Positions 961-43,224 of a stretch of DNA of 43,224 bases are shown here, piece by piece. A program made the position numbers and the translations under genes. Source of the stretch: a virus; UHGV virus genome UHGV-0208947. One strand, 5' to 3'. The notes under the pieces were generated by a model. The model was given only the letters and a program-made list of their open reading frames with translations, did not search any database and was not told the origin of the DNA. The first letter of the stretch is position 1. Every line of letters starts with the position of its first letter.

Positions 961-1417
961 TGATACCTCTGTAACCACAATTTTGTTTAATAATCTTAGC
1001 GTGCACATTTTCTGAACATACATGCAGCGCGTGAATGTGTTAAACAATAGTAGATGACTTTATCGGCAGTAATCAAAGGTTTTGAGCGAGCAACTCTGCG
1101 TCAGGAAAGGGCATTTTCCTGAATATGTTCACATCATATAAAGAAATACAGATAAAGCTATTATCTGCTTGTGGTGGTGAATGCACTGACCGGCTATAAG
1201 GAAAGGCCAAACAAGAACACGGTTGCAAAAACCGTGCCCTTAAATATTGAATCTCTATTCAGAACACTTTCTTAAATTGTCATTTGGCATATTACGAACA
1301 ATTCCGCGTAAAAACGTTCTGTTACGCTAAACCCTTATCCAGCAGGCTTTCAAGGATGTAAACCATAACACTCTGCGAACTAGTGTTACATTGCGTGTAG
1401 CTTTGAGTGGGCAACTT

Positions 1418-1458
1418 TGTGTACACTTTTGTGTACCCAAAAACAAAAATGTGTACCC
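1418..1458 (+). repeat. Three direct repeats TGTGTAC(A/C)C immediately upstream of the integrase start; candidate arm-type Int binding sites or int regulatory repeats
   Basis: TGTGTACAC at 1418-1426, TGTGTACCC at 1430-1438 and 1450-1458, same orientation. Confidence 0.4.
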
Positions 1459-1463
1459 ATTCA

Positions 1464-2657
1464 ATGATCACCGACACAAAGCTCAGGAAGGCGCTCGGCA
1501 AGAAAAGAGATGATATCGAGATTATTTCTGATTCGCACGGGCTCAACGCCAGAATCAGCCAGGCCGGAAAAATATCATTTTTCTATCGGTATCGCTGGGC
1601 CGGTAAAGCGGTAAAACTCAATGTTGGTGATTATCCTGCAATGAGTATCACCCAGGCAAGAGAGCGTCGCCAACAATTCAGAAACTGGTTAACTGAGGGA
1701 CTGGATCCGCGAGAGCAGGTGAAGCTGGATAAGCAGACCCGACAGGAAGCGATGTCCGTTGCCGAAGCGTTCAATTACTGGATTGAAAGGCACTGTATCG
1801 CTAACGGGCTAGTTAAAGTCGATTACTATCGCTAGGTGTTTGAGAAACATATCGCCGAACCGATGAAGAATGTCAAAGTCGATAACACAGCGAAAATGCA
1901 CTGGATCAACGTCTTCGATTCTATAGAAAGCAGGGTGATGGCTCATTACATGCTTTCGCTGTGCAAACGGGCGTTTAGGTTCTGCGTTAACAGAAGTGTG
2001 ATCGCCTCAAACCCACTCGAGGGATTACTGCCATCTGATGTCGGGCAAAAGCCTAAAAAGAGAACTCGCAGGATGGACGATGACGATCTGCGCAAAATCT
2101 ATCAGTGGTTGAAAAGCCATATGTCGATAGAGTCCGTTTTCCTGGTGAAATTTATTATGCTTACCGGATGCCGTACGGCTGAGATTCGACTTAGTGAGAG
2201 ATCATGGTTTCGATTGGATGATAATGAGTGGGTCGTGCCTGCGGGCAGTTATAAAACTCGGGTACATATTAGAAGGGGACTCTCAGACGCCGCCGTTAAC
2301 CTGGTCAGAAATCACCTCAAGAAAATAAACACCAATCACCTGGTGACTTCACAACGTAAAATTGATGGCGGGATCAAAGATTCGCCCGTTCATTCACCTG
2401 TGGCATCCAATTACGCCCGTTCTATTTGGAATGGAACAGGTATGGCAGAGTGGTCGCTTCATGATATGAGGCGGACGATAGCCACAAATCTCTCTGAGTT
2501 AGGTTGCCCGCCGCACGTAATTGAAAAGCTGCTCGGGCATCAGATGGTGGGGGTTATGGCGCATTACAACCTTCATGACTATATCGATGATCAGAAACAC
2601 TGGCTCCGCGTTTGGCAGAGCCATCTTGAAGAGATCATCGGAGAGCCCTTCAGTTAA
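1464..2657 (+). pseudogene. int: P4-type tyrosine integrase interrupted by an in-frame TAG (amber) codon at 1833-1835
   Basis: N-terminal [14 protein letters not shown]...[31 protein letters not shown] resembles the arm-binding domain of P4-like integrases; C-terminal part (ORF 1836-2657) has HxxR and a terminal MAHYNLHDY tyrosine motif. Track ORFs 1407-1835 and 1836-2657 are in the same frame, separated only by TAG. Confidence 0.6.
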
Positions 2658-2896
2658 TTTATCTTCTTTTTATCCTCCCACTCTTTGATTGACTCAGAGC
2701 GCCAGCGGTTAGGGTTGCCGGGCCAGTCAGGGGGTGGGAACGGGCATACGAAGCCCCGAGGCATTGTGTCTGCACTTTGCCATGACCAAAGGGTTTTGCG
2801 TGAAATTTTGTAGCGACTGGTCAGGTCTGACGTTACCAAAATATCATCCATAGCTCTCTCCAGTTGCCCGTTCGGGCCATTCAAAATCTTTTTCAA
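2654..2896 (-). CDS. AlpA-family small DNA-binding protein (putative excisionase or regulator)
   Basis: 80-aa ORF adjacent to int; ...[15 protein letters not shown]... resembles AlpA/Xis-type HTH; start codon uncertain. Confidence 0.5.
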
Positions 2897-3135
2897 CCAA
2901 CCTGCCCGGGCAGGGAGCGGAGACGGCGCATGCCGGTCATCGCTGTGGCCACGTAGCTCGCCTTTCGGTTCACCACCTCCACCCAGACTTTCACGCCTTC
3001 AACCTTCACCGTATAAGTCTCTTTCATCTTGCTTCGCCCATAGTCGCCATATGTTTGCAAGTGAGCTGCCAGCGCGATGTCGCATGCTTGGCGAGCTAAA
3101 GGTGATTGCTTACTTCCTCGATTGATCAGTCGCAT
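2893..3135 (-). CDS. Hypothetical prophage protein
   Basis: 80-aa ORF co-oriented and overlapping the neighbouring gene by 4 nt; no recognisable motif. Confidence 0.4.
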   Translation of the reverse strand: MRLINRGSKQSPLARQACDIALAAHLQTYGDYGRSKMKETYTVKVEGVKVWVEVVNRKASYVATAMTGMRRLRSLPGQVG

Positions 3136-3173
3136 ATAATCTCCTTGAGGGAGGGTTACCCCTCCCGGTCTCG

Positions 3174-4292
3174 TCAGGCCACGTATTCCGGTTTCATATC
3201 CGCCAGGGTGATGCTGAATTGATCGTGCAGTTCATCGCCTAAGTGACGCTTTGAAGATGCAAGCATGCGCTCGGCTTCAGCGAACCGTTCGGCTGCATGC
3301 GGCTCGTCGGGCTGGGGCAGGGATTTAATAGCCTCCTCAACCTTGTTGCGTGCATCCACTAGGTAATAACGCTTTACGGCTTTGTTTTTCAGCTCGGTGA
3401 ATAGTGCGGATCCCAGCGTAGCTTTCGCCGTTTCAATGTCGGCACGCAGCGATTTGGCGCTATCCACGTCCTGAGCAGATTCGATGCGTTCGCGGAAATC
3501 ATCGGCAAGAGAGTCGACATTTACCGACGATTCCTGTGCGCTTTGCGTGGTTGTGACGGTGTCACCTGAGATATCAGCCAGGCTAACGCGTTGCGGCGTT
3601 GGGTTGATCTCTTTTTCTGTGCGCTGTTCAATCTCATCAGGGGTGTACACACCAAGAACAACTGCAGGGCAATACAGGCGCGCCCAGTATTTGAGTGCCA
3701 GATAAGCGATCTGCTGTTTCGGGTTTGATACCCAAAGTGGAGAATTACGTGTGATTACGCTGGAGAGGAAAACAGGCTCTCCCCAGGTGATATCACTTTC
3801 ACCGCGAATAACGGCACCTACCCGTACCGACAGTCCTTGTTCATCAGCACTTTCCCAACCGCGTACCATTTCTTTCTTGTCGTACGTCCCGCCACCTTTC
3901 GCAGGCTTTTTAACGGTTATCTCGCGGCTGCTGGCACATTTCGACCAGTCGCCCTCGTACTCATAGTGAAAGCGGCCAACGATGGCGTTTGAGCTGGAGA
4001 TCACCGCATTAACCAGTTGCGCTTCGTATCCCAGGACACCGTTAACCAGGTGCGTCTTTTGCGCCACGGCGTAAGGGTTCATACCCCACTGCATCGCCTG
4101 CATGATGATGGCCATGCAGTCTGCCGGATTGCCGCGGAGGTGCTCAGGCACCGTTACGGCTGCCTGTGCCATCAACCCGGCGACAGACTGAAGCTGGGTT
4201 AAAGCCTGCACGTTGAAAATGGCATTGCTGGCTGAGATCGTGTTTGGAGTCTGCTGTTCAGCGGTTACGATATTCGTGTTTTCCATCATCAT
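3174..4292 (-). CDS. RecT-family single-strand annealing protein (candidate)
   Basis: 372-aa ORF immediately downstream of the RecE-like exonuclease; region ...VPEHLRGNPADCMAIIMQAMQWGMNPY...GVLGYEAQLVNAV... follows the RecT-like pattern as I recall it. Confidence 0.55.
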   Translation of the reverse strand: MMMENTNIVTAEQQTPNTISASNAIFNVQALTQLQSVAGLMAQAAVTVPEHLRGNPADCMAIIMQAMQWGMNPYAVAQKTHLVNGVLGYEAQLVNAVISSSNAIVGRFHYEYEGDWSKCASSREITVKKPAKGGGTYDKKEMVRGWESADEQGLSVRVGAVIRGESDITWGEPVFLSSVITRNSPLWVSNPKQQIAYLALKYWARLYCPAVVLGVYTPDEIEQRTEKEINPTPQRVSLADISGDTVTTTQSAQESSVNVDSLADDFRERIESAQDVDSAKSLRADIETAKATLGSALFTELKNKAVKRYYLVDARNKVEEAIKSLPQPDEPHAAERFAEAERMLASSKRHLGDELHDQFSITLADMKPEYVA

Positions 4293-4297
4293 TCCCC

Positions 4298-7207
4298 TTA
4301 TGCATGAGTACGCAGCGCTTCAAGGCGGCGCAGGTCGAAGTCGTTCAGTTCGTCGGTGTAGTCAGCAGTGATTGGCGCTGGCCATTCACCTGTGTCGAAT
4401 CCGGTTGCGATATTGCGCATCGCTTTGCGGTACTCGAGCATACCCAGCTCCAGTAGTTCAGCGGATGCCTCGATGATGGCGATCCAGTGGTAGTTCTCGT
4501 CTTTGTTGACGAAAATCCAGAAGAACTGATCCAGCGCTGCGGTTTCGCAGTACATAGCCGCGCTCAGGTGATAATCACGTTCAATAATTTCCCGGTGTAG
4601 CCTGGCGCGCAGGCTTTCCTGCTTAACATTCCACATGCTGATGGTTTTCAGGTCAGCACCGATACGCACGCCGTCTAGGTCGATCTCAAGGTCAGGGCGC
4701 ACACGAACTTCCAGTCCCGTCTCCTCGTCAAAGCCAAAGTAGCTCACCTCAACGGCGCGGCTCGGGTGGGTTAGCAGCATGCCTGCGGTCGGGTGCGAGA
4801 GCAGTGCTGACTGAATTGCCTGCGCGGTGGCAAGTTGCTGGTGGGTAACCAGCACTTTCCCTTCCGGGTTGTTGCGCCAAGCATCGAGCAGCTCGTCGGC
4901 GAACACTGCATCTGGTTTGACTGCCTTCACGGCCTGAATCAGATCGGCCTTCGTGCCAGAGACTTTCAGCGGTTGCAGCTTCTGAGCTTCCTGCGCGACC
5001 AGGTCAGGATTGATAATCGCAAGTTGTTCGAGTAGTGCGTCGCGGCTGCCGCTGGTTTTAATCTGCGCTGGCAGGGTGGCGTTGTACTCTTTGATGCACG
5101 CCTTCATTGCTGTTGCTGTCTTCTTCTGATCTGCATCGATACGTTGGAATTCAGCTGGCAGCGCCATATAGTTCTGCGCCGTTTCATCCAGGCTAGCGCC
5201 CAGCGGCACCAGCGCTGGCAGGGTGGCGTTGTATTCATCCAGCAAAGCTTTGATATCGTCTGCGCTCAGTTGCGCTGGCAGGCTGGCGTTGTACTCATCA
5301 ATAAACGCGCGGATCGTTGCCGTGGTGGTAAATGCACCTTCCGGAATTACGGGTTCAACGCTAAATTCTTCATCAAGCTGTTCTGGCTGCAACGCCAGCG
5401 CATGTACCAGGTTTCCCATGTCCAGCACTGAGGAGCGCTCTTTGACGATGGTTTTCTCAACGTGGCGCGCATTGAAGTACATCAGCGAAACGCGCGCATC
5501 TTTTACCTGGGTGGAACTGATGCCGTTGGCAGCGTGGTAAACCTCGTTCGGCAGACCTTCATAGCGCCCAGGCTCGAAGTAATCGGGGTAAAAAACAGCT
5601 TGTTCGTCAGATTGCGCCTCTGGCTCGACGTGTGCCAAAACTGGTTCAGTCTGGTTTACAGAATCGCTATTTTGAGCGACAGATTCCGTATTTTGGTTTA
5701 CATCGGCCTGCTGGCCGGGATGTGACTCTTCACCAGTTTCCAGACTGCTTTCGCCTGACTGCATTTCATTACCAACATTTTTTTCATCACTGACAGTTTC
5801 TTGAACCTGCACATTGCTGGTGGTTTCCGTAGCCTGTTTCGTGCCATGAGTTGCTGAGTTCTGCAGTAAAGCCGTAACATCGAATATTCCGTTGCCGACA
5901 TTTTTAACCAGTTCTTGTTCGGCTTTATGTGGTTGTGCTGTCGCTTCCTCTGCGCGGCGGCGTGCTTCTTCTTCACGTACGCGTTGCAGGTTCTCTTCGT
6001 GAGTGCAGAAGGGTTTGCGTGGAGACTCCTTACTTTCAGGTTGGGGAATTTCCTGTGTTGCGGGCTCAGCTTCATGCAATGGCAATAACTCAACAGCAGC
6101 ATTAAACGCAGCAGTCATGGTCCGGTTAACAAACTCCAGGTGAGCGACAGGAGTTAGATGAATATTTTCCGGCGCGATACGTATCAGGTTAAAAATAGCT
6201 GTGCGGTTAACGCCAAGAACGCCGGGTTGATTGCGCAGAATGCTGCTCCATGATTTCCACGGTTCTTCTTTTTTGGTCACGATTTCTTTAGCGCGACGAA
6301 GAATGCTGCCCGGGATCTCGAAGTGGTTGAAGTCCATAGGCAGAAGGGCACATGCAATCTCTAAATCGAGAGTGTCAAGGGTATGGTATGTATCAGGTCC
6401 ACGGTCAGTGACGTAACCGCCGTTGGCATTGGTTCCGGAATCAGTACGCTGAACACTACTGATGTGATTACCGGCAGCCCATTCACGCGCCAGGATGCCA
6501 CGGTCAATGTAATCAGTAGCCGCCCACATTCTGGTGAAACGGAGTACCAGCGCGAGTTCGTGACGCTTGTCCTGGCTGAACACTTTGCGAATGGCATCGG
6601 TGTAGCGCCACAGGTCTTTGGTGTCGTAACCCTTCACTTCCGGGCAGTTCTCAGCAGCTAACAGCAAGTTCTGGACGTAACTGTTATCAGTGTCCATCTC
6701 CAGCGCGCCGATAGCTTCGTACTCTTCGCGGGTTACGTGGTGGCGCAGTTCGTCGGCGGTGAACTGGGAAAGCAGTTGCTTACGAAACGGCATCTGCACT
6801 ACCGGGTAGAGGGTTGAGTCGTCGTCGTGTTCGTCCAGCGTGATGCCAGCGGTTTCTGGCAGCGTTGACTCAGTAGTTATGTGACTATCAACGGTCTGAG
6901 CCGTTTTCTCGTCAGAGTTTTCAGCTGTGACTTTTGGCAGCCAGGTGCGGTCATCGTTCTGCAGTTCGTAGCGTTCGCACCAGGTGTAATCCACTGCGCC
7001 TTCTTCCGGCAGGTCGTCATATACCGGGAAATCGGTGCGGATTGGTTTGGCATAATCTTTACCGCGGCCAGTTTCTTCAATTCCGGCTTCTTCCAGTGCC
7101 ACATCGAGTTGGAGATTGGCGCGCGCTACACTTTTCGCAGTGAACCAAATCACTGCATCTTTCTTGCCAGACTTCTGACTGGCTTTTATCAGATGGAAAA
7201 ATTCCAT
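4298..7207 (-). CDS. RecE-like exonuclease VIII (recombination exonuclease)
   Basis: Long ORF; start taken at the ATG at 7207-7205 (MEFFHLIK...) preceded by AAGAGGA with 6-nt spacing; the track start at 7312 is GTG. Acidic C-terminal domain and position upstream of the RecT-like gene fit a RecE/RecT pair; contains internal EYNA(S/T)LPA repeats. Confidence 0.6.
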   Translation of the reverse strand: MEFFHLIKASQKSGKKDAVIWFTAKSVARANLQLDVALEEAGIEETGRGKDYAKPIRTDFPVYDDLPEEGAVDYTWCERYELQNDDRTWLPKVTAENSDEKTAQTVDSHITTESTLPETAGITLDEHDDDSTLYPVVQMPFRKQLLSQFTADELRHHVTREEYEAIGALEMDTDNSYVQNLLLAAENCPEVKGYDTKDLWRYTDAIRKVFSQDKRHELALVLRFTRMWAATDYIDRGILAREWAAGNHISSVQRTDSGTNANGGYVTDRGPDTYHTLDTLDLEIACALLPMDFNHFEIPGSILRRAKEIVTKKEEPWKSWSSILRNQPGVLGVNRTAIFNLIRIAPENIHLTPVAHLEFVNRTMTAAFNAAVELLPLHEAEPATQEIPQPESKESPRKPFCTHEENLQRVREEEARRRAEEATAQPHKAEQELVKNVGNGIFDVTALLQNSATHGTKQATETTSNVQVQETVSDEKNVGNEMQSGESSLETGEESHPGQQADVNQNTESVAQNSDSVNQTEPVLAHVEPEAQSDEQAVFYPDYFEPGRYEGLPNEVYHAANGISSTQVKDARVSLMYFNARHVEKTIVKERSSVLDMGNLVHALALQPEQLDEEFSVEPVIPEGAFTTTATIRAFIDEYNASLPAQLSADDIKALLDEYNATLPALVPLGASLDETAQNYMALPAEFQRIDADQKKTATAMKACIKEYNATLPAQIKTSGSRDALLEQLAIINPDLVAQEAQKLQPLKVSGTKADLIQAVKAVKPDAVFADELLDAWRNNPEGKVLVTHQQLATAQAIQSALLSHPTAGMLLTHPSRAVEVSYFGFDEETGLEVRVRPDLEIDLDGVRIGADLKTISMWNVKQESLRARLHREIIERDYHLSAAMYCETAALDQFFWIFVNKDENYHWIAIIEASAELLELGMLEYRKAMRNIATGFDTGEWPAPITADYTDELNDFDLRRLEALRTHA

Positions 7208-7345
7208 GTGAGATCCTCTTTTTTGAGTGTTAGAATCCCCGGGCCAGAGATAGCGCCCATTGGATGTTTTTTGGTTTGGTATAAATTCCGGTGTAACTTT
7301 GGTCGGTGGCACCGGACGTGAATCCCGCCTTGCGCGGGTTTTACG

Positions 7346-7507
7346 TTAGCCTTCGTGAGCCATCTGGTCGTGCGAAGCGCAACGTTTGGAGCAATACTCT
7401 TTTTCTTTGCGCGCCAGCTGTGAGCCGTTGCGATAGAGAAGGGTGCTCTTGATTACTTCCTCCGTTTTAACCGGCTTGCCGCAATATCCGCATTTCTTGT
7501 CTAACAT
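7346..7507 (-). CDS. Small zinc-ribbon protein (53 aa), hypothetical
   Basis: ATG at 7507-7505 preceded by GGAGGA; MLDKKCGYCGKPVKTEEV...YCSKRCASHDQMAHEG contains CxxC...CxxxC; below the 60-aa track cutoff. Confidence 0.45.
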   Translation of the reverse strand: MLDKKCGYCGKPVKTEEVIKSTLLYRNGSQLARKEKEYCSKRCASHDQMAHEG

Positions 7508-7518
7508 GACATCCTCCG

Positions 7519-7869
7519 CTAGTGGCTGAGTCCATGCCCCAGACCGTTCAGATAAACTTCAACCAGCAAATCCTTGGTGTAAGTCATTTCTACGCCGCGA
7601 TGCAGATACAAACGTCCGCGAGCGTTAGCTGATGCCGTCCAGGTTGAGTCTTTGTGTTTGACGAGCATCCCCGGCTGAACTGCGCCGCGGTTTACTGTCT
7701 GTGTACCGTAGTGCTGATGAACCATGATGTTCTCCAGTTTTTCTGAGTGAACTTCGCTGGTGGTGCCGCGGCGCTGATCTTCACGGTTGAGCGTTTTAAC
7801 TCTGCAATTCACCACCGCGAAGCTCACTCTGTGCTTTGCCCTTGTCGCCAGGCTGGCGGAACGTTTCAA
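7519..7869 (-). CDS. Hypothetical early protein in the position of an N-like gene (function not supportable)
   Basis: 116-aa ORF just downstream of the leftward operator; track start is TTG, true start unclear (internal M at MVHQHYG). Confidence 0.35.
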   Translation of the reverse strand: MKRSASLATRAKHRVSFAVVNCRVKTLNREDQRRGTTSEVHSEKLENIMVHQHYGTQTVNRGAVQPGMLVKHKDSTWTASANARGRLYLHRGVEMTYTKDLLVEVYLNGLGHGLSH

Positions 7870-7979
7870 ACCTACTGCGCGTTAATCTCACCACCTCATT
7901 CCGGTCTTCGTATGCCCCGGACGGCTACTTCGTGGGCTCCATGCCTGGGTGGTTCGTGGTGCGTCTTGGTGATTGCATA

Positions 7980-7996
7980 TTAAGCCTGAGACTTAA
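7980..7996. promoter_or_regulatory. Candidate left operator site (17-bp near-palindrome TTAAGCCTGAGACTTAA)
   Basis: Exact reverse complement of the 17-mer at 10194-10210 next to the repressor/cro divergent region. Confidence 0.5.
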
Positions 7997-8027
7997 ATCA
8001 TGTCAAGCTCCAGGCGAAATGTGATTG

Positions 8028-8043
8028 TAAGTTTCAGGCTTAA
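8028..8043. promoter_or_regulatory. Second candidate left operator half-copy (TAAGTTTCAGGCTTAA)
   Basis: 16/17 match to the operator motif, 32 bp from the first copy. Confidence 0.35.
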
Positions 8044-35188: not shown

Positions 35189-35190
35189 AA

Positions 35191-36255: not shown

Positions 36256-36267
36256 TGAGGTGGGGCC

Positions 36268-36612
36268 GTGAGACATTTACTTTGCACTGTTACCGTGTTC
36301 GCGGTGCTTATATCAGCACCCGCTTTTGCGGATCAGCAATGTGGTGATTTTAAAATCCATTGGGCAGATGATGGCTTAGCCAGAATCAATGGCGCAAAGC
36401 CAGAAATGCAAAAAATCACCTTCCTGAAAAACAAAGGCGATTATAACAATATCAAGATGGATTGGCGTATGGCTACCGATCAGCCTGGAAGATGGGTTGG
36501 TCTTGAGTACATCAATCGAAACGGCAAGATAATTCTCAATGCCCAGTGGCTGCAAGCCAGCATGAATGCGCCGCGTCAGTATGCAACCTATGATTGTATA
36601 AAGGTGAAATGA
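36268..36612 (+). CDS. Small secreted protein (signal peptide, two Cys), moron of unknown function
   Basis: MRHLLCTVTVFAVLISAPAFA-DQQC... signal peptide; AT-rich; inserted between baseplate genes. Confidence 0.55.
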   Translation: MRHLLCTVTVFAVLISAPAFADQQCGDFKIHWADDGLARINGAKPEMQKITFLKNKGDYNNIKMDWRMATDQPGRWVGLEYINRNGKIILNAQWLQASMNAPRQYATYDCIKVK

Positions 36613-37158
36613 GTGGCAGGTAAGGGACTGTCAACTATTGGCCCTTTGGATCTGGCATCTCTAAATGATGATAACTTTGTAATCACCATTGTTTTTCCTC
36701 ATTCGACGGCAAAAAATTATCCAATGGCTGTAGCCATTGCTGAGCTTTCAGATGTAAATAAAATTGGTGAGATAGCAGGGAAAAAATTCCATTTAGCGTC
36801 CTTTAGTAAAACGCCTGATCAACTATCAAGAGCTGCAAACCTATGTTATCTGGTGTATGGAATTACTGGCGTTCAAGCCTTTATTAACGGTGAGTTGGTT
36901 GTAAATGTTCAGGAGTTATCATCTTCTCTTGGATGTTATGCTCGATCACTAAAAGCCAACAATCAGCAGTCTTATTGCGAATGCGTTTCTAACTACCCGG
37001 GCAACTACCTTTTACCTTGCCGTTTACTTAGGGGGTGGGAAGGCGGAGTGTCCGATAAATTGCCATTTAGTTTGGCTGACCAAATACAAGCATTGGCAGT
37101 AAGTAAAGGGTGTAGTTGGTGTCCCAATTTCCACCCAGAAAAGATGAAGCGAATTTAA
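36613..37158 (+). CDS. Cys-rich hypothetical protein (second gene of the moron cassette)
   Basis: GTG start abutting the upstream stop; 181 aa with CxC...C...CxxC; followed by a strong terminator. Confidence 0.45.
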   Translation: MAGKGLSTIGPLDLASLNDDNFVITIVFPHSTAKNYPMAVAIAELSDVNKIGEIAGKKFHLASFSKTPDQLSRAANLCYLVYGITGVQAFINGELVVNVQELSSSLGCYARSLKANNQQSYCECVSNYPGNYLLPCRLLRGWEGGVSDKLPFSLADQIQALAVSKGCSWCPNFHPEKMKRI

Positions 37159-37165
37159 TAACACA

Positions 37166-37191
37166 AACCCGCCGCCGAGCGGGTTTTTTTT
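37166..37191 (+). terminator. Rho-independent terminator closing the moron cassette
   Basis: CCCGC-CGCCGA-GCGGG hairpin followed by T8. Confidence 0.6.
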
Positions 37192-37202
37192 ATGGGGTTT
37201 TT

Positions 37203-37943
37203 ATGCCAATTCCAACTCAATCACAGATCGGCGGTGAGCAGCAGACCGCGCAGGCCATTGCCGATTCGGTGTCTACCCAGATGCGCGTAGCGATGCCCGG
37301 CATCATTCAGTCGTTCGATCCTGATACTGTTACCTGCACGGTAGAGGTAGCGCTTCGCGGTATCGTTGGCGATGGCTCCACCGAATTAAAACCGCTGGTG
37401 GATGTGCCGGTTATCTTCCCGCGTGGCGGCGGTTGTACGCTGACTTTTCCGGTTAAAGAAGGCGACGAGTGCCTGCTGCTCTTTGCCGACCGTTGCATCG
37501 ATTTCTGGTGGCAGAGCGGCGGCGTTCAGGAGACCGTCGATCCGCGACAGCATGACTTATCTGATGCGTTCGCCATCGTTGGCCCGCAGTCGCAAGCACA
37601 GAAAATCAGCGGTATCAGTACCAGCGCCGCGCAGCTGCGAACCGATGATGGTGCGGCGTTCGTAGAGGTTGCCGCAGGACATAACATCACCGTTCAAACA
37701 CCGGGCCAGCTCACGGCTACGGCTGAAGGTGGAACGACAATCACATCCCCGACTATCACGCTGAACGGCAACGTAACGATTAATGGCAATCTGTCTCAGG
37801 GAATGGGCGAAAGTGGCGGTACTGCGACGATGCTTGGGCCGGTGACGGTGACTAACGATGTGAAGGCTGGAGGTAAGAGCCTCATCCAGCATACCCATGG
37901 CGGTGTGCAGAATGGCAGCGGGAATACTACCGCGCCTAATTAA
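37203..37943 (+). CDS. Baseplate spike/assembly protein V-like
   Basis: ATG at 37203 (MPIPTQSQIGGEQQTAQAIADSV...); Gly-rich C-terminus; precedes W-like and J-like baseplate genes. Confidence 0.6.
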   Translation: MPIPTQSQIGGEQQTAQAIADSVSTQMRVAMPGIIQSFDPDTVTCTVEVALRGIVGDGSTELKPLVDVPVIFPRGGGCTLTFPVKEGDECLLLFADRCIDFWWQSGGVQETVDPRQHDLSDAFAIVGPQSQAQKISGISTSAAQLRTDDGAAFVEVAAGHNITVQTPGQLTATAEGGTTITSPTITLNGNVTINGNLSQGMGESGGTATMLGPVTVTNDVKAGGKSLIQHTHGGVQNGSGNTTAPN

Positions 37944-37961
37944 AAACTACCAAACAGACAA

Positions 37962-37995
37962 AAGCCCCGGGTGCGCTAACACTTCGGGGCTTTTT
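37962..37995 (+). terminator. Hairpin plus T-run after the spike gene (terminator or attenuator)
   Basis: GCCCCG...CGGGGC stem followed by TTTTT. Confidence 0.45.
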
Positions 37996-38069
37996 ACTTT
38001 CTGCACCTTGAGGATAGCAAGGGAGAATATGTGATTAATTTTAGCAAACTGATACGGGAGTTGCGAGTC

Positions 38070-38168
38070 ATGGGCGAAAAACTACCCAACTGGAAATTCT
38101 TCCTCATCTGGGCCGTGTTCTTTTTATTCGGTCTGTCAAGCGTTATTAGCGCTATACGCTGGTGGTGA
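38070..38168 (+). CDS. Possible 32-aa membrane peptide
   Basis: MGEKLPNWKFFLIWAVFFLFGLSSVISAIRWW; GGGAG upstream; in-frame GTG at 38031 would give 45 aa; could be spurious. Confidence 0.2.
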   Translation: MGEKLPNWKFFLIWAVFFLFGLSSVISAIRWW

Positions 38169-38171
38169 TTT

Positions 38172-38525
38172 ATGCGATACCGACGCGAAGATGCTGACGG
38201 CGATTACACTTTCGGGCAGGGTGACAACACCTTCCTTATCGACAGCCCGGAGTGCGTTGCCCAGGCCGTAAAAACCCGTTTCGAGCTGTGGCGAGGTCAG
38301 TGGTTTCTCGACCTGACAGAAGGCACGCCGTATGTCCAGTCAGTGCTGGGTAAGCAGCGTTCTGACGTCTACATCCTGGCTATACGCGAACGCATACAGG
38401 ACACACCGGGCGTTCTGTCGATTCTTTCCTTTGATACCAATTATGACGGCACCAGTCGCCGCGTTACCTTCACCTCCTCCATTGACACAATCTACGGCCA
38501 GACGACTGTAACAAGCGAGGCATAA
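38172..38525 (+). CDS. Baseplate protein, GPW/gp25-like (candidate)
   Basis: 117-aa ORF immediately upstream of the J-like baseplate gene. Confidence 0.5.
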   Translation: MRYRREDADGDYTFGQGDNTFLIDSPECVAQAVKTRFELWRGQWFLDLTEGTPYVQSVLGKQRSDVYILAIRERIQDTPGVLSILSFDTNYDGTSRRVTFTSSIDTIYGQTTVTSEA

Positions 38526-39725
38526 ATGGCTTTGAACCTCGACACGCTGGGGCTATCGGCAACGGTAACCGCCCAGGGGATTAGTGCGCCTGATTACCAG
38601 ACAATCCTAGATACACTGACCAGCTATTTCAGGCAGATTTACGGTAGTGATGCCTACCTCGAACCAGACAGCAAAGACGGGCAGATGGTCGCGCTGGTGG
38701 CTCTTGCCGTGCATGACGCTAACAACACCGCTATCGGGATCTACAACTCTTTTTCACCGACGACAGCGCAGGCCGCAGCGCTTAGCAGCAATGTAAAAAT
38801 TAACGGGATCACGCGAAAAGTAGCGACAAACTCTACAGCTGACCTTCTGTTAACCGGTACGGCAGGCACGACTATCTCGAATGGTTCTGCACGGGATAAA
38901 AACGGCATAATCTGGAATTTTCCAGCGAGTGTAGCGATCGGCGTTGATGGTACTGTGCTGGTGACGGCCACATGTGCGAATAGCGGTTCGGTTGCGGCGA
39001 TGGCCGGGACTATCACCACCATTAACACACCGACTCGCGGCTGGGTGTCGGTAACCAACCCGGCTGCGGCTACTGTCGGTTCACCAGCAGAAACCGACGC
39101 AGAGCTGCGCATTCGGCAGGGGCAAAGCGTAGCGCTATCATCGATCACACCGTTTGAAGGCGTCGACGGTGCGATCGCCAACGTTGCGGGCGTGACACGT
39201 CACAAGCTCTACGAAAATGATACTGGAGCAACCGACAGCAACGGGTTGCCACCGCATTCAATTTCCGCCATCGTTGAGGGAGGGGATGTTACTGAAATAG
39301 CCCAGACCATCAGGGGGAATAAAGGGCAGGGAACCGCAACTTACGGTACAACTTCTGTCACCGTGCCGGATACTTACGGTAATCCTCACGTCATCAGTTT
39401 TTCGCGTTCTACCGATGTGCCAATTTTTGTAGCCATTACCCTGAAAGTTTTTACCGGGTATACATCTCAAATCGGCGAGCAGATAAAACAGGCTGTTGCC
39501 GATTATATAAATGGCCTGGCAATTGGCGATGACGTTCTGCTGAGTCGTATTTATTCCCCGGCAAACCTTGGCGTGGTAAGCGGAGGCAGTGCTCGCTATT
39601 ACGACATTCAGGAGCTGCTCATCGGCAAATCCTCTGACTCAGTCGCAAGCGGAAATATCGATATTGCTTATGACGAATCTGCGTCATGCGTTGCGAGTCA
39701 CGTCACTATCACGGTGACCTCATGA
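38526..39725 (+). CDS. Baseplate J-like protein
   Basis: 399-aa ORF in the conserved V-W-J baseplate order. Confidence 0.65.
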   Translation: MALNLDTLGLSATVTAQGISAPDYQTILDTLTSYFRQIYGSDAYLEPDSKDGQMVALVALAVHDANNTAIGIYNSFSPTTAQAAALSSNVKINGITRKVATNSTADLLLTGTAGTTISNGSARDKNGIIWNFPASVAIGVDGTVLVTATCANSGSVAAMAGTITTINTPTRGWVSVTNPAAATVGSPAETDAELRIRQGQSVALSSITPFEGVDGAIANVAGVTRHKLYENDTGATDSNGLPPHSISAIVEGGDVTEIAQTIRGNKGQGTATYGTTSVTVPDTYGNPHVISFSRSTDVPIFVAITLKVFTGYTSQIGEQIKQAVADYINGLAIGDDVLLSRIYSPANLGVVSGGSARYYDIQELLIGKSSDSVASGNIDIAYDESASCVASHVTITVTS

Positions 39726-40402
39726 GCAAATACACCGAACTGATCACTAACTACCATGCTACCAAGCCACTCTTTTTTGACCATATAGATCTGAGCACCC
39801 GCCCGCTGATTGATGTGTCCAGCACTATGTCAGGGCTTGTAACAGCCTTCGATATCGATACGGCGGTTGGCGTGCAACTCGATATCCTCGGCCTGTGGAT
39901 TGGGCGTAGTCGTATAGTCAGCCAGCCAATTAGCGGCGTTTATTTCAGCTGGGACACTGACGGGCTCGGATATGACCAGGGCATCTGGCAAGGGCCATAT
40001 GATCCTGATTCTGGCTATACGACGCTGAGTGATGAGACGTACCGCATCATTCTGAAAGCGAAAATCGCTATCAACAACTGGGATGGTCGGAACGACTCTC
40101 TGCCTCCCATCCTTGACGCTGCTACCGCAGGCTCTGGACTGAAGATGCAGATCGTCGATAACCAGGACATGACGATATCGGTCTGGGTTTTTCCCGAGAC
40201 TGATATTTCTGATGTGTCACTCGAACTGATAGCCGCTATCAAACAGGGTTATCTCACCGTTAAAGCTGCTGGTGTATGGGCTGGCGGCGTTGAAACACCC
40301 TCAGTCGAAACACCGTCCGAAGGAACAAAATTCTTTGGATTTGACATGGATAACGAATACATCGCCGGTTTTAATGACGGCGCATGGGGGAGATTACTTT
40401 AA
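39722..40402 (+). CDS. Tail protein (Mu gp48 / P2 gpI-like position)
   Basis: ATG at 39722 overlapping the previous stop; 226 aa; precedes the tail fibre gene. Confidence 0.5.
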   Translation: MSKYTELITNYHATKPLFFDHIDLSTRPLIDVSSTMSGLVTAFDIDTAVGVQLDILGLWIGRSRIVSQPISGVYFSWDTDGLGYDQGIWQGPYDPDSGYTTLSDETYRIILKAKIAINNWDGRNDSLPPILDAATAGSGLKMQIVDNQDMTISVWVFPETDISDVSLELIAAIKQGYLTVKAAGVWAGGVETPSVETPSEGTKFFGFDMDNEYIAGFNDGAWGRLL

Positions 40403-41130
40403 TGGCTGGAACTAATGATTTTAAAGCGTTTGCGACAGATGCTAATGCAAATGTTACCTCGCAGGAGGAATGGGAGACGCTAACCGCACTGAAGAAAGGA
40501 TTCTCCTCGGGTAAAGCATCCAGCGCACAGGTCAGTAAAGCGCTGCGCCAACCGTCGACGATGGCGGCTGTACTGGGGCAGTTTATCGCGAACGCCGAAC
40601 TGGACGCGCTCGATGATGGTGACGTTGATGGACTGGTGGCAAAGCTGGCGACAGCGATTACCACAAACCTTGGTTTGGGAGAAGGCTCTGCATTACCTGT
40701 TGGTGTCCCTGTTCCGTGGCCTTCAGCCACTCCGCCAACAGGCTGGCTGAAATGCAATGGTGCAGCTTTTTCTGCTGAAGAATACCCGGAACTGGCAAAG
40801 GCTTATCCGACAAATAAATTGCCTGATTTACGTGGTGAGTTTATTCGTGGCTGGGATGACGGTCGTTCAGTAGATACTGGTCGCAGCGTTATGTCTGCAC
40901 AGAGAGCGCGTGTTGGTTATATTAAATTTGATATGGGAATTTATGGTATTCCTGCAGGTACGGGCTCACTTATTTTGTCCAATGATATCTTAATTACGGG
41001 TCATGACAGTAATGGCTCAAGCCTATTACTGAACAACTCTAATGAGCGGGCAATTGGTGAAATGTATGTCGTTCCTGCCGATACTCGCCCACAAAATATT
41101 GCATTTAACTATATCGTGAGGGCCGCATAA
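40402..41130 (+). CDS. Tail fibre protein (constant N-terminus plus currently expressed variable C-terminus with tail-collar-like motif)
   Basis: ...GWLKCNGAAFSAEEYPELAKAY...LPDLRGEFIRG resembles the phage tail collar/fibre domain; the hix-like crossover site lies within the gene at 40658-40683. Confidence 0.75.
   Translation: MAGTNDFKAFATDANANVTSQEEWETLTALKKGFSSGKASSAQVSKALRQPSTMAAVLGQFIANAELDALDDGDVDGLVAKLATAITTNLGLGEGSALPVGVPVPWPSATPPTGWLKCNGAAFSAEEYPELAKAYPTNKLPDLRGEFIRGWDDGRSVDTGRSVMSAQRARVGYIKFDMGIYGIPAGTGSLILSNDILITGHDSNGSSLLLNNSNERAIGEMYVVPADTRPQNIAFNYIVRAA
40658..40683. promoter_or_regulatory. Left inversion crossover site (hix/gix-like 26 bp) inside the tail fibre gene
   Basis: TTACCACAAACCTTGGTTTGGGAGAA; its reverse complement shares the first 14 bp (TTCTCCCAAACCAA) with the site at 42591-42616. 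Confidence 0.6.
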
Positions 41131-41732
41131 TGAATAATGCAGAATTAAATAGTGAATTGATTGCTACTGCGGCAGGGAATATTACTGTTTATAACTATGA
41201 TGGTGAGACGCGAGAGTATACTACTACATCAACTGAATATCTTGCTGTGGGTGTCGGTATCCCGGCAAGTTCCTGTTTAGATACTCCTGGCTCATATAAA
41301 GCTGGTTATGCAATCTGCCGTTCTGCAGATTTTAACTCATGGGAATATGTGCCAGACCATCGCGGTGAAATCGTCTTTAGCACCGAAACAGGAGAATCAA
41401 AAGAAATCACAGCTCCGGGTGATTACCCTAATAATACAACCACTATCGCCCCATTAACGCCATACGATAAATGGGATGGTGAGAAATGGGTGACGGATAC
41501 TGAGGCACAGCATAGCGCCGCAGTAGACGCGGCAGAAGCACAGCGTCAGTCACTGATTGATGCTGCAATGGCTTCCATCAGTCTGATTCAGCTGAAATTA
41601 CAGGCCGGACGGAAGTTGATGCAGGCAGAAACAACCCGGCTTAACGCTGTGCTGGATTACATTGACGCGGTGACGGCAACAAATACCAGCACCGCGCCGG
41701 ATGTCATCTGGCCTGAACTGCCGGAGGAGTAG
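41130..41732 (+). CDS. Tail fibre assembly protein (chaperone)
   Basis: 200 aa; C-terminal ...TNTSTAPDVIWPELPEE typical of Tfa proteins; coupled to the tail fibre gene. Confidence 0.7.
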   Translation: MNNAELNSELIATAAGNITVYNYDGETREYTTTSTEYLAVGVGIPASSCLDTPGSYKAGYAICRSADFNSWEYVPDHRGEIVFSTETGESKEITAPGDYPNNTTTIAPLTPYDKWDGEKWVTDTEAQHSAAVDAAEAQRQSLIDAAMASISLIQLKLQAGRKLMQAETTRLNAVLDYIDAVTATNTSTAPDVIWPELPEE

Positions 41733-42147
41733 GCCATTCAATATCTGGCGCACCGGAAGTATCGACCAGTTCCAGTGCGTCCAGATAATCCAGCCACGAA
41801 TTATATTGCGCCAGTTCCTCGCCTTTCAGACGACCAATAGCAGCTTTGCCAGGCCACTGATGGGTATTGATGTAGGTATTGACTTCTGAAACCAAAGATA
41901 TTTTTTTCATTTCAGCCGTCAACACCTCATCCTCTTTTGAAGGGGGTGGGGAATTAATCCATACTGGCCGTCCTGAACTATCAGCGCCAATTTCTTTCCC
42001 TTCTGGATGCAGACCAAGAAATTGCTCATATGTTTCTCTGGTAATTTCAATAACATCATCAGGAAGCGTTCCCGCATCCTCATATTCTGGAAACAATTCT
42101 TGCAGATAAAAACTTTTACTTCCGGGTGAAAAGAATACTGAGTTCAT
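41704..42147 (-). CDS. Alternative tail fibre assembly protein (inverted orientation)
   Basis: 147 aa; C-terminal ...DTSGAPDIEWPTPPAVQAR parallels the plus-strand Tfa; convergent overlap. Confidence 0.7.
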   Translation of the reverse strand: MNSVFFSPGSKSFYLQELFPEYEDAGTLPDDVIEITRETYEQFLGLHPEGKEIGADSSGRPVWINSPPPSKEDEVLTAEMKKISLVSEVNTYINTHQWPGKAAIGRLKGEELAQYNSWLDYLDALELVDTSGAPDIEWPTPPAVQAR

Positions 42148-42149
42148 TA

Positions 42150-42623
42150 TTACCGTCCAATGATTAACGCTGAGACGCTGGTATCTGAAGGAAAGTCTGC
42201 ATTCAGTGGTTTGTCGACTTTGAATACAATCGTATTATTCCCCCGGACAGCGGCAAAAGAACAAACCGCCGTCGCGTATGAACCTGTAATATTACTGAAT
42301 ACACCACCATAGGCTGTTGTTGATACCAGAGGGATAACGCCCAGCACCTTATTAGGAAATACAAAGGGCAATGTGGCTGTGGCAATATAAGACTTATTAG
42401 AACCTGTAATGGCATAAGCATTATCAGTCATTCCATTCATCGCCACTGGACCGCTTATACTTACAGTAACCATCTGAGTGATTAGCCCGTCAGGTTGACG
42501 AATCACAAAATTTCCATTGCCACCAGTAACCGTCCAGAAAGACATATCAGGGATTTGGTTTTCCCCGTTGCCCACATTCCTTTTTGCCGCTTCTCCCAAA
42601 CCAACCTTTTTTATAACCATCAA
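42150..42623 (-). CDS. Alternative tail fibre variable C-terminal cassette (silent in this orientation)
   Basis: N-terminal ...KKVGLGEAAKRN... reads through the right hix-like site and shares the GLGE junction with the constant part of the plus-strand fibre (..TTNLGLGEGS..). Confidence 0.65.
   Translation of the reverse strand: MMVIKKVGLGEAAKRNVGNGENQIPDMSFWTVTGGNGNFVIRQPDGLITQMVTVSISGPVAMNGMTDNAYAITGSNKSYIATATLPFVFPNKVLGVIPLVSTTAYGGVFSNITGSYATAVCSFAAVRGNNTIVFKVDKPLNADFPSDTSVSALIIGR
42591..42616. promoter_or_regulatory. Right inversion crossover site (hix/gix-like 26 bp)
   Basis: TTCTCCCAAACCAACCTTTTTTATAA; compare hixL TTCTTGAAAACCAAGGTTTTTGATAA as recalled. Confidence 0.6.
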
Positions 42624-42675
42624 AAATCTGGTGATGCTTCGCCGTTTCTCCTGTTTTCATAACAGGAGAAATCCC

Positions 42676-43224
42676 ATGATTTACGGTTATGCCCGAGTAT
42701 CAACAAACCACCAGGACACTGAATTGCAACTAACGGCGCTCAAGTCAGCGGGTTGTGAGAAAATTTTTGAAGAGCATGCCAGCGGGAGGAAATCGAATCG
42801 GCCGGTTCTAAAACGGCTGATCGCCACTATGCAGCCGGGGGATGAACTGGTGGTCTGGAAGCTGGACAGGATAGGCCGCAACGTTCTGCATGCGCTGTTG
42901 ATGTTCCAGCAGTTACAGGAAAAGGGTATCAACTTCCGCAGTATTACCGATGGCGTGGATCTCAAAACAGCCAGCGGCCGCTATAACTTTCGTAACATCC
43001 TTTCCGCAGCACAATATGAATCTGATCTTAATAGCGAACGTACCTTAGCAGGGCTGGCCGTAGCCAGGGCAAAAGGGCGAGTTGGTGGTCGCAGGCCTAA
43101 GTTCACGGATGAGCAATGGTGGGAAATGGGGGAGCGGATGGCAACCGGTGAATCACGACAAAGCGTATCAAAAACATATGGAGTAGGGCTCTCAACTCTG
43201 TATAAAAAGTTTCCAGCTAGCTGA
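42676..43224 (+). CDS. Serine DNA invertase (Gin/Hin/Pin/Cin family)
   Basis: ATG at 42676 after AGGAGA; MIYGYARVSTNHQDTELQ... with catalytic Ser in YARVST, VVWKLDRIGRN, C-terminal HTH ...GLSTLYKKFPAS; ends with TGA at the last window base. Confidence 0.85.
   Translation: MIYGYARVSTNHQDTELQLTALKSAGCEKIFEEHASGRKSNRPVLKRLIATMQPGDELVVWKLDRIGRNVLHALLMFQQLQEKGINFRSITDGVDLKTASGRYNFRNILSAAQYESDLNSERTLAGLAVARAKGRVGGRRPKFTDEQWWEMGERMATGESRQSVSKTYGVGLSTLYKKFPAS

Follow-up and report, generated by a model that had tools for sequence, protein, structure and literature searches.

Several groups of phages resemble parts of the locus described here. The Salmonella phage SEN34 (genus Brunovirus) has a lambda-like genome but Myoviridae morphology, with a contractile tail demonstrated by electron microscopy (Mikalova et al. 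2017, PMC5261728). Citrobacter phage Omnitron (CP115737) and the E. coli phages vB_EcoM-611R5, 683R1 and 606R2 are similar to the locus in their virion arm, whereas their early regions are unrelated to it in DNA, and 611R5 encodes a DNA polymerase and a helicase of its own. The more distant phages Pam3, XM1 and E217, from cyanobacterial, Vibrio and Pseudomonas hosts, are not known to have lambdoid control regions. The phages mEp237, HK225 and phi80 have the opposite profile, with closely similar control genes, but siphovirus-type (HK97/lambda-like) virion genes. Finally, the tail of the lambdoid phage SfV is truly of the Mu type.

The window analysed here (the whole stretch of 43,224 nucleotides from virus genome UHGV-0208947) represents, with a probability of about 90%, nearly all of a ~42-kb temperate E. 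coli prophage in which two well-known gene pools have recombined, phi80/lambda-like early genes and a contractile-tail virion module of the SEN34/Pam3/XM1 type (Table 1). There is nothing unusual about it as an E. coli prophage, and the type of virion module has been described previously. The module is found in 403 of 5426 complete E. coli genomes, and the prophage of E. coli LR-33 is a near-identical relative (99.9%). Early, nin and lysis genes were named after the annotations available for the LR-33 prophage (PGAP) and for mEp237, and after tblastn and Pfam runs. The analysis confirms the original prediction of a mosaic temperate prophage in which a morphogenesis module for a contractile tail (myovirus) is joined, without a transposase, to early, nin and lysis regions of lambdoid type, and the genes that were listed are all present, in the predicted order and on the predicted strands. 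The description of the module as Mu-like did not hold, as it is of the SEN34/Omnitron type.

Table 1. Features of the prophage and its flank, in window coordinates
Feature	Position	Strand	Basis
Host flank outside prophage: 5' part of kch (voltage-gated K+ channel)	1-960	-	LR-33 annotation, 99.9% identical
attL core, phi80-type, AGAACACTTTCTTAAAT	1261-1277	+	same as annotated mEp237 attP
phi80-type tyrosine integrase, in-frame amber codon at 1833-1835	1465-2657	+	translation
Leftward early genes: excisionase, DUF4060, RecT, RecE	2654-7312	-	mEp237 identity; LR-33/mEp237 annotations
Small leftward genes (YdaE-family, Kil-like)	7347-7869	-	LR-33 and mEp237 annotation
Cargo: uncharacterised proteasome-beta-like (Ntn, T1-type) protein, 434 aa	8302-9606	-	
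Immunity region overall	9748-11008	both	
HTH repressor	9748-10134	-	Pfam HTH_3; 82% aa identity to SEN34 repressor
cro	about 10239-10457	+	72% aa identity to SEN34 cro
YdaT-domain protein in cII position	10469-11008	+	Pfam YdaT_toxin
Replication genes O and P	11060-12690	+	39% and 47% aa identity to lambda O and P
nin-type region: DinI, DUF1367, YbcO, RusA, YlcG, Q	13654-16673	+	LR-33 annotation
Q antiterminator	15891-16673	+	37% aa identity to lambda Q
Cargo slot between Q and holin: 189-aa protein, phrog_11870	16877-17446	+	
Lysis cassette: two holins, GH19 endolysin, Rz/Rz1 spanins	17811-19631	+	LR-33 annotation
Phage metallopeptidase	19852-20472	+	Pfam (PF18894/PF10045 pair with TerS)
DUF2280 small terminase (TerS)	20503-20976	+	Pfam (PF18894/PF10045 pair with metallopeptidase)
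70-aa HEAT-repeat ORF	21002-21214	-	Pfam HEAT_2; own AGGAGG ribosome-binding site
Packaging/head: TerL, Phage_portal_3 portal, MuF-domain minor head protein, DUF2213, cement, major capsid PF09950	21286-27707	+	Pfam
Head-tail joining: STY1053-like, DUF4054, Neck1, head protein, tail terminator	27749-29976	+	Pfam, PHROGs
Tail: DUF3383 sheath, KPP10_Orf10-type tube, assembly chaperone, tape measure with SLT domain	29980-34279	+	Pfam
Simple baseplate region: Dit-like tube initiator, Pam3_gp18-type plug, hub, spike with GpV apex, wedge subunit, Baseplate_J, DUF2612	34279-40402	+	Pfam, PHROGs, NCBIfam
Two unknown ORFs in baseplate region	36268-37158	+	
Small membrane ORF in baseplate region	38031-38168	+	
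Tail fibre, currently expressed form: constant N-terminus (~93 aa) and Collar-domain tip	40402-41130	+	Pfam Collar; translation
Invertible segment, gix-like sites 40658-40684 and 42590-42616	40658-42616		inverted repeat
Fibre tip A, in invertible segment, part of expressed fibre			
Tfa, in invertible segment	41130-41732	+	
Tfa', in invertible segment	41704-42147	-	
Fibre tip B, in invertible segment	42150-42590	-	
Gin/Hin/Cin-family serine invertase, 182 aa	42676-43224	+	Pfam Resolvase and HTH_7

The first pool is a lambdoid control arm that is uninterrupted over attP once the phage is circular, in the order invertase, attP, int, xis, RecET, immunity region, O/P, nin region and Q. Its DNA is 95-99% identical to that of mEp237, HK225 and phi80, which share all these components except the immunity region, and also the attB site. 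Identity to mEp237 amounts to 96.1% across 1261-7954 and 94.9-95.6% across 10388-16282, and identity to phi80 to 99.3% over the parts in common. The three siphoviruses differ from the prophage in the immunity region, the adjoining cargo and the lysis genes. In the immunity region, the sequence departs from mEp237; the repressor and cro are 72-82% identical to their SEN34 counterparts. The Kil-like protein among the small leftward genes is 81% identical (aa) to that of SEN34. A Pfam run found no S24 peptidase domain in the repressor. The O gene contains 3.5 copies of a 21-bp iteron (tandem repeat, 11459-11531). The lysis cassette is 92% identical (nt) to phage SKA5, and Rz/Rz1 share 53-71% aa identity with SfV.

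The second pool is a virion arm, comprising metallopeptidase, TerS, TerL, head, contractile tail and simple baseplate. The head genes follow the order TerS, TerL, portal, MuF-domain protein, DUF2213, cement, major capsid and neck proteins, the tail genes the order sheath, tube, chaperone, SLT tape measure, initiator, plug, hub, spike, wedge, J and DUF2612, and after these come fibre, Tfa, inverted Tfa', inverted fibre tip and invertase. Between 19.8 and 42.5 kb, the DNA is ~95% identical to Omnitron (97% for the metallopeptidase and TerS stretch, 95.5% over 21286-33264, and 87-97% in other blocks), and ~65-85% identical to SEN34 and the vB_EcoM-6xxR phages (611R5: 65-86%). The stretch from TerL to DUF2612 has 25 genes, 24 of which match SEN34 at the protein level with 37-97% identity (84-97% from TerL to the major capsid, 76-96% for head-tail joining and 37-82% for the baseplate); the baseplate-region orf36613 had no match in this comparison. 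SEN34 has the same order of these genes, and likewise joins the module to a lambdoid early/nin/Q/lysis arm, but differs in integrase, att site, TerS and lysis cassette, has exo/bet instead of RecET, and carries an O-acetyltransferase in place of the invertible fibre segment and invertase. Overall DNA similarity to SEN34, roughly estimated from alignment blocks, is near 40%, below the genus threshold of 70% (PMC12945033).

According to established lambdoid biology, the prophage would be kept silent by its repressor. Upon induction, O would bind the iterons, and O and P together would recruit host DnaB. By analogy with lambda, Q would then antiterminate a single long rightward late transcript of the plus-strand genes for lysis, packaging, head, tail and fibre. 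The resulting particle should be a myovirus whose simple baseplate, like those of Pam3, XM1 and E217, consists of a small tube initiator and plug, hub, spike and three wedge proteins. For SEN34, contractile morphology was seen by electron microscopy; for the prophage, it is predicted from the genes.

Integration is at the phi80 attB site, between kch and yciI, via the phi80-type tyrosine integrase. The previously suggested start at 1400 lies within the prophage, but the true left edge is slightly earlier, at the att core just past the kch flank. The window ends exactly with the stop codon of the invertase (43224), whereas in LR-33 a 15-nt att repeat recurs ~123 bp beyond the invertase, adjoining yciI/tonB. 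Therefore, attR is outside the window. The integrase DNA is 99% identical to phi80/mEpX1, but codon 123 is amber where LR-33 reads CAG, and excision may thus be defective. The amber codon, and the location of attR outside the window, would fit a prophage remnant that is in decay and no longer functions, or a locus resembling a tailocin, with a hybrid layout that serves no current function. This appears improbable. LR-33 carries the same prophage with intact int and both att repeats, and all genes except int align over their full length to SEN34, Omnitron or mEp237 counterparts. A tailocin is contradicted by the presence of packaging and head genes. Moreover, the deposited sequences of the relatives SEN34, Omnitron and vB_EcoM-611R5 are phage genomes, and SEN34 has been induced and viewed by electron microscopy (PMC5261728). 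The prophage may still be viable.

A Mu origin of the virion module is even less likely. The module would then derive from a member of the Mu family whose transposition genes were lost, comparable to lambdoid phages of the SfV type, which have Mu tails. Gene functions do run in the same order as in Mu, the portal is followed by a protein with a Phage_Mu_F domain, and the simple baseplate resembles that of Mu in having a spike, three wedge proteins and fibres. However, this is the general gene order of simple-baseplate myoviruses. In tblastn searches, Mu A, B, c, ner, mor and C had no match better than E = 0.02, in agreement with the predicted lack of a transposase. Among the Mu virion proteins tested, gp47 (Baseplate_J) was the only one with a clear match (28% identity, E 1e-5). 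TerL (E 4e-4), the gp45 spike (E 1e-3) and U/U' (Tfa, E 2-3e-3) matched marginally, and Mu portal, F, I, T, L, M, tape measure, N, P, gp46, gp48 and S had no matches in the prophage. The same search readily detected the documented Mu-like tail of SfV, used as a positive control (sheath 36%, E 6e-84; also N, P, gp45-48, gp38 and U). The module and Mu have only the Pfam families Phage_Mu_F and Baseplate_J in common, both of which are widespread. Portal_Mu, Mu-like_Pro, Mu-like_gpT, Phage_sheath_1, Tail_tube, DNA_circ_N, GpP, GP46 and Phage_Mu_Gp48 were not found in the module. Instead, it contains Phage_portal_3, DUF2213, XM1_gp53/Phage_cement, PF09950, DUF3383, KPP10_Orf10, Dit_like, Pam3_gp18, E217_GP41 and DUF2612. 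For portal, protease/scaffold, capsid, sheath, tube, initiator, hub, wedge-1 and wedge-3, the Pfam families differ from those of Mu, and there is no BLAST similarity. The nearest solved structures are XM1, Pam3 and E217 chains (Pam3 portal, Pam3 capsid and XM1 for head proteins; XM1 gp6 sheath, 9e-36; Pam3 sheath, 3e-28; Pam3 tube, 4e-10). Portal, capsid, cement, sheath, tube, plug and hub share a Pfam family or best PDB match with these phages (E 1e-6 to 1e-36), a distant kinship judged by phmmer E-values and not by close identity. The tube initiator is a small Dit-like protein with a plug, as in Pam3, XM1 and E217, and not the large gp43 of Mu (PMC11915804). Late genes probably depend on a lambda-type Q, and not on C-activated promoters as in Mu. 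Descent from Mu is thus refuted at the sequence and family level (BLAST, Pfam, SfV control), and the module appears to be Mu-like in layout, but not in origin.

The Mu/P1-style invertible fibre segment with a Gin-family invertase is real, as judged from the DNA. The anticipated G-like segment is borne out by the gix-like sites, by an in-frame alternative fibre of 240 aa after in-silico inversion, and by Omnitron, which has the same sites and also the invertase, and carries the segment in the opposite orientation. The fibre/Tfa/Tfa'/fibre'/invertase layout recurs in 611R5. The invertase would flip the 1.96-kb segment, and thus exchange the C-terminal fibre tip and its chaperone, to switch host range. 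Shared architecture and fibre inversion therefore suggest that the tail works, and host range switches, in a Mu-like manner. The invertase shares 51% aa identity with Mu Gin, but is also common to a siphovirus: region 42538-43224 is 95% identical (nt) to mEp237, where the invertase adjoins attP and lacks a partner inversion site. The invertase thus travels with the phi80/mEp237-type att-int block, and therefore does not argue for descent of the virion genes from Mu.

The proteasome-like cargo gene is located next to the repressor, in an island of 34-36% GC. The gene for the 189-aa protein, which had no match in a Pfam search, is flanked by terminator-like hairpins (16770-16797 and 17669-17688), and similarity to mEp237 is interrupted around it (16811-17684). 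The HEAT-repeat ORF sits in a 307-bp insertion (20978-21285) between terS and terL, which abut in Omnitron.

The element proves to be a lambdoid prophage of mosaic make-up, which carries a contractile-tail virion module and a fibre switch in the style of Mu. In this respect the original prediction, which had described lambdoid early, nin and lysis regions fused to a Mu-like morphogenesis module, was half right: the mosaic, the contractile-tail module and the switch stand, and the Mu-like lineage of the virion does not. The hybrid layout is known. It has been published for the Salmonella phage SEN34 (a Brunovirus) and is common in E. coli, and the prophage is an ordinary example of it. The lambdoid gene classes were all found in the predicted order, as judged from the annotations of the near-identical prophage in E. 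coli LR-33 and of the lambdoid siphovirus mEp237, and from homologies to lambda. They comprise int-xis, recombination genes, a divergent repressor/cro pair, O/P, a nin region with a Holliday-junction resolvase, Q, and holin-endolysin-spanin genes. The counterparts of lambda O, P and Q share 39, 47 and 37% amino acid identity with the lambda proteins, and the control arm is 96-99% identical to mEp237 and phi80 at the nucleotide level. The repressor has an HTH_3 domain alone and lacks the S24 self-cleavage peptidase domain. The immunity region (9748-11008) is of SEN34 type (82% amino acid identity for the repressor, 72% for cro), amid early genes of mEp237 type. A search of the window with Rfam at the gathering threshold gave zero matches.

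Features of the prophage and its host flank, in genome order
Feature	Position	Strand	Content or remark
kch, 5' part (host gene)	first 960 bases	minus	
att core, phi80-type	1261-1277		AGAACACTTTCTTAAAT; prophage start; identical to annotated mEp237 attP
Leftward early genes from att			int, xis, DUF4060, RecT, RecE, small Kil-like genes
Cargo slot 1	7955-9747		next to repressor; 36% GC vs 52% for whole prophage
Proteasome-like cargo ORF	8302-9606	minus	434 aa; 34% GC; in slot next to repressor
HTH repressor	9748-10134	minus	followed by cro and a YdaT-domain protein in cII position
Rightward early genes			O, P, DinI, DUF1367, YbcO, RusA, YlcG, Q
Iteron, 21 bp, 3.5 copies	11459-11531		inside O
Cargo slot 2	16812-17683		between Q and holin; alignment break vs mEp237
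Lysis genes			two holins, GH19 endolysin, Rz/Rz1
Virion head and neck genes	from 20.5 kb		TerS, TerL, portal, MuF-domain, DUF2213, cement, major capsid, five neck proteins
Cargo slot 3	20978-21285		307-bp insertion between terS and terL
HEAT-repeat ORF, 70 aa	21002-21214	opposite to terS/terL	own AGGAGG ribosome-binding site
Tail genes			sheath, tube, chaperone, SLT-domain tape measure, in that order
Baseplate genes			tube initiator, plug, hub, spike, wedge, Baseplate_J, DUF2612
Cargo slot 4	36613-37158 and 37944-38171		inside baseplate cluster
Arm end			fibre, Tfa, inverted Tfa', inverted fibre tip, invertase
Cargo slot 5	fibre tips		differ also between window and LR-33
Inverted sites, 27 nt	40658-40684 and 42590-42616		inside fibre gene; upstream of invertase

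Nucleotide identity to mEp237 amounts to 96% over 1261-7954, 95-96% over 10388-16282, 83% over 16401-16811, and 95% over 42538-43224, a block with the outer inversion site and the invertase. Once the phage genome is circular, these blocks adjoin one another across attP, and the shared control arm therefore consists of the invertase, attP, and int through Q. Similarity to the Citrobacter phage Omnitron runs from 19798 (metallopeptidase, TerS) through the invertase. The result is a clean case of modular exchange. A phi80-type arm (95-99% identity) is joined to siphovirus virion genes in mEp237, but to myovirus virion genes in the window. Conversely, the virion arm of the window stands behind unrelated early regions in Omnitron and in the E. 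coli phage vB_EcoM-611R5, the latter with its own DNA polymerase and helicase. The junction between the phi80-type early arm and the head module is rare: positions 1-25000 of the window are covered to 80% or more in only 5 of 5426 genomes. The middle of the tape-measure gene (32712-33827) is the sole difference in the virion core from LR-33, whose prophage is otherwise 99% identical; the gene has 2082 nt in the window and 2016 nt in LR-33, and it diverges from Omnitron over 33264-34151.

The virion gene set and order that had been likened to Mu, from portal to invertase, are present in the window according to Pfam and PHROGs. However, a Mu-like order read by eye is no evidence of Mu ancestry, because it is common to simple-baseplate myoviruses. 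When tested as family membership by BLAST, Pfam, PDB searches and a positive control, the Mu-like character of the morphogenesis module found no support. Tblastn was run in both directions, with window proteins against Mu and Mu proteins against the window. It matched Gin (51%), gp47/Baseplate_J (28% over 166 aa, E 1e-5), Rz1, TerL (E 4e-4), gp45 (E 1e-3) and U/U' (E 2-3e-3). The Mu portal gp29, F, I, T, sheath L, tube M, tape measure, N, P, gp46, gp48 and S were unmatched in the window either way. At the nucleotide level (blastn), neither Mu nor lambda shared a block of at least 150 nt at E 1e-10 with the window. The control was SfV, a lambdoid phage whose tail genes are described in its own record as similar to those of Mu. 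With Mu proteins it returned the sheath (36%, E 6e-84), as well as N, P, gp45, gp46, gp47, gp48, gp38 and U, so that a Mu-type tail in the window would have been detected by the same test. The predicted lack of a transposase was borne out, as tblastn with Mu proteins detected none in any frame. Mu A, B, c, ner, mor and C all went undetected in the six frames of the window, the best E values for transposase A, B, c and ner being 0.02-0.7 over short stretches.

The Pfam assignments point in the same direction. The Mu head is made of Portal_Mu (PF06074), Phage_Mu_F, Mu-like_Pro (PF10123) and Mu-like_gpT (PF10124), and the Mu tail of Phage_sheath_1, Tail_tube (PF10618), DNA_circ_N (the gp43 initiator), GpP/Gp44, GP46 and Phage_Mu_Gp48. 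In the window, Portal_Mu, Mu-like_Pro and Mu-like_gpT are absent, and Phage_portal_3, DUF2213 and PF09950 are found instead. The Mu-type sheath, tube, initiator, hub, GP46 and Gp48 families are likewise absent from its tail and baseplate genes, which belong to DUF3383, KPP10_Orf10, Dit_like and Pam3_gp18, E217_GP41/phrog_196, phrog_120 and DUF2612; the counterpart of Mu GP46 has no Pfam family. The two virion modules have only Phage_Mu_F (PF04233, E 6e-17) and Baseplate_J (PF04865, E 4e-15) in common. Both are widespread among tailed phages, and sharing them with Mu is therefore not discriminating.

The families of the portal, cement, capsid, sheath, tube, initiator and plug (BH1a) and hub are common to the window and the structurally solved simple myoviruses Pam3, XM1 and E217 (Pfam). 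The match of the hub to E217_GP41 is weak (25.7 bits, below the Pfam cut-off of 27). Phmmer searches of the PDB matched the sheath to XM1 (9e-36) and Pam3 (3e-28), the portal to Pam3 (2e-36) and E217 (2e-13), and the capsid (3e-18) and tube (4e-10) to Pam3, and returned no Mu-named entry at E <=0.01, although published cryo-EM structures of Mu exist (PMC11915804). The tube initiator of Mu is the large multifunctional gp43, whereas Pam3, XM1 and E217 have a small initiator, the C-terminus of which binds a small plug protein (PMC11915804). In the window, a 200-aa Dit_like protein is followed by a 101-aa plug of Pam3_gp18 type, which is the Pam3/XM1/E217 arrangement and not that of Mu. What is kept of the resemblance to Mu is functional, in that the baseplate is simple, the genes follow the same order and a fibre segment is invertible.

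By sequence, the lineage of the virion module is that of SEN34 and Omnitron, with families of Pam3/XM1/E217 type, and not that of Mu. In megablast searches with the right half of the window, Omnitron matched with approximately 95% identity over 80%, and SEN34, vB_EcoM-611R5, 683R1, 606R2 and 689R2, and Hafnia phage yong1 with 80-85% over 50-56%. From TerL to DUF2612, 24 of 25 proteins match SEN34 in colinear order (37-97% amino acid identity), and nucleotide identity to SEN34 is 84.6% over 21304-31718. Like the window, SEN34 has a lambdoid early region, with O, P, NinB, NinG and Q. It was described in 2017 as genetically lambda-like with Myoviridae morphology in electron microscopy, and was put into "temperate 26", a new lambda cluster (PMC5261728). 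The hybrid layout is thus a published hallmark of this phage group. For the present prophage, the sheath, tube and baseplate genes predict a contractile-tail morphology, the electron microscopy being that of SEN34. Genus membership requires at least 70% nucleotide similarity over the whole genome (as cited in PMC12945033). By our own arithmetic, identity times length summed over blastn blocks, the similarity is roughly 40% to SEN34 and 46% to Omnitron. This is below the threshold: the prophage is related to Brunovirus through its virion arm and is not a member of the genus. Of 5426 complete E. coli genomes, 403 carry the head-to-sheath block, and in 294 of these the coverage reaches 80% or more; EPEC E2348/69 and O55:H7 DEC5B are among the carriers.

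The fibre switch does recall Mu, and here the prediction of a G-like invertible segment with an invertase was correct. A serine recombinase (Resolvase and HTH_7 domains by Pfam, 51% identity to Gin) adjoins a segment framed by inverted 27-nt sites, as in DNA-inversion systems of the Gin/Hin/Cin/Pin kind (sites of about 26 bp). Both TTACCACAAACCTTGGTTTGGGAGAA and the site inverted to it resemble TTATCCAAAACCTCGGTTTACAGGAA, the gix of Mu; the left site, written as TTACCACAAACC-TT-GGTTTGGGAGAA, is similar to TTATCCAAAACC-TC-GGTTTACAGGAA of Mu gix. Inversion in silico joins the constant 93 N-terminal fibre residues in frame to the second tip, giving a 240-aa protein, and also turns the second Tfa chaperone to the orientation that is expressed. 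In Omnitron (L007, 39255-41102) the segment corresponding to 40685-42590 lies in the opposite orientation between identical 27-nt sites, which is natural evidence that the switch operates. Between the window and LR-33, the fibre tips break at 40859-41191 and 41851-42541. The invertase and outer site (42538-43224) are 95% identical to the mEp237 invertase that adjoins attP (L006, 2197-2883). When mEp237 was searched for a partner inversion site, the repeats found were at chance level only, and its invertase is thus an orphan. Since the gene adjoins attP even in this siphovirus, it travels with the att-int block and not with the myovirus genes. Fibre-inversion cassettes are also present in P1, e14, p15B and many other phages.

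Base 43224, the last of the window, completes the stop codon of the invertase. The window matches the LR-33 prophage at 99.9% identity in its first 25 kb and at 99% in most of the remainder. In LR-33 the 15-nt att repeat recurs approximately 123 bp past the invertase, adjoining yciI and tonB, which implies a prophage of about 42 kb at the classical phi80 site, with attR just outside the window. A tRNA scan found no tRNA genes in the window, and integration is therefore not at a tRNA gene. The phi80-type integrase gene has an in-frame amber codon (TAG, 1833-1835) where LR-33 has CAG for glutamine. As read from the sequence, its product would end after 122 of 397 residues unless the codon is suppressed, and excision of this copy would be impaired. 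The copy may thus be unable to excise, barring a host with a glutamine-inserting amber suppressor. The remaining genes appear full length. The possibility that the element is a tailocin was rejected, since it has full-length terminase, portal and capsid genes.

By analogy with lambdoid biology, the prophage would be silenced by the repressor, O would bind the iterons with P loading the host helicase, and Q would permit a single long rightward transcript for lysis, packaging, head, tail and fibre. The genes between 10.2 and 41.7 kb are all on the plus strand, except for the small HEAT ORF. Homology to SEN34, Pam3 and XM1 predicts a myovirus particle with a simple baseplate, and host range may alternate through fibre-tip inversion. 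Beyond correct annotation, the importance of these assignments is small.

Variable cargo slots had been expected in such a hybrid, and comparison with the relatives mEp237 and Omnitron places them exactly, by alignment breaks. The slot between Q and the holin encodes a 189-aa protein (16877-17446, phrog_11870) bracketed by two terminator-like hairpins; mEp237 has an unrelated gene there. In Omnitron, which lacks the 307-bp insertion, terS and terL abut. The insertion has a hairpin at 20980-20993, and a HEAT-repeat ORF is annotated at the same position in LR-33. PADLOC, run on eight cargo candidates, gave a sole and weak HEAT-repeat match (E 2e-4, 86-aa ORF). The interval of about 230 nt between spike and wedge (37944-38171), absent in Omnitron, contains a terminator-like hairpin (approximately 37963-37995) followed by a 45-aa hydrophobic ORF (38031-38168). 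SEN34 has a 45-aa ORF at the same position.

The proteasome-like protein next to the repressor may merit separate study. Its ORF probably starts at the Met to which the PHROG (phrog_5990, of which it is a member) and all homologues align. Taken as 467 or 434 aa, it found nothing in Pfam, NCBIfam, PADLOC and PDB sequence searches, and the likeness to the proteasome emerged by fold comparison only. The core fold is interrupted by two large helical insertions of about 230 residues in total. An alignment of 36 homologues has M1-T2-A3-E4-I5, D18, K30, K37 and a C-terminal GGP-DVA as invariant positions. The residues of what reads as a complete proteasome-beta catalytic signature are the Thr after the initiator Met, Asp18, Lys37 in KLF, Gly48 and the C-terminal GGPVDVAVISKVDGFV. 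We take Thr2, Asp18, Lys37 and Gly48 to be the equivalents of proteasome Thr1, Asp17, Lys33 and Gly47, a correspondence that comes from motif comparison by eye with the Thermoplasma beta subunit and is to be read as a lead. Many new proteasome homologues, some with multiple insertions and some phage-borne, were reported by Fuchs, Alva and Lupas in 2021 (PMC8665760), and the protein may belong to one of their catalogued families. In the literature, no defence paper on a proteasome-like anti-phage protein was found. It is conceivable, albeit unlikely, that the protein is a prophage threonine-protease defence or exclusion factor, of a kind new to defence catalogues. It has more than 6000 homologues, and among the best 120, those that are named are all "hypothetical" or "uncharacterised". 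Homologues also occupy other cargo positions: in a Serratia prophage one lies on the opposite strand, in the interval from Q to the holin, and another is found in Vibrio, beside the Zot gene of a filamentous phage.
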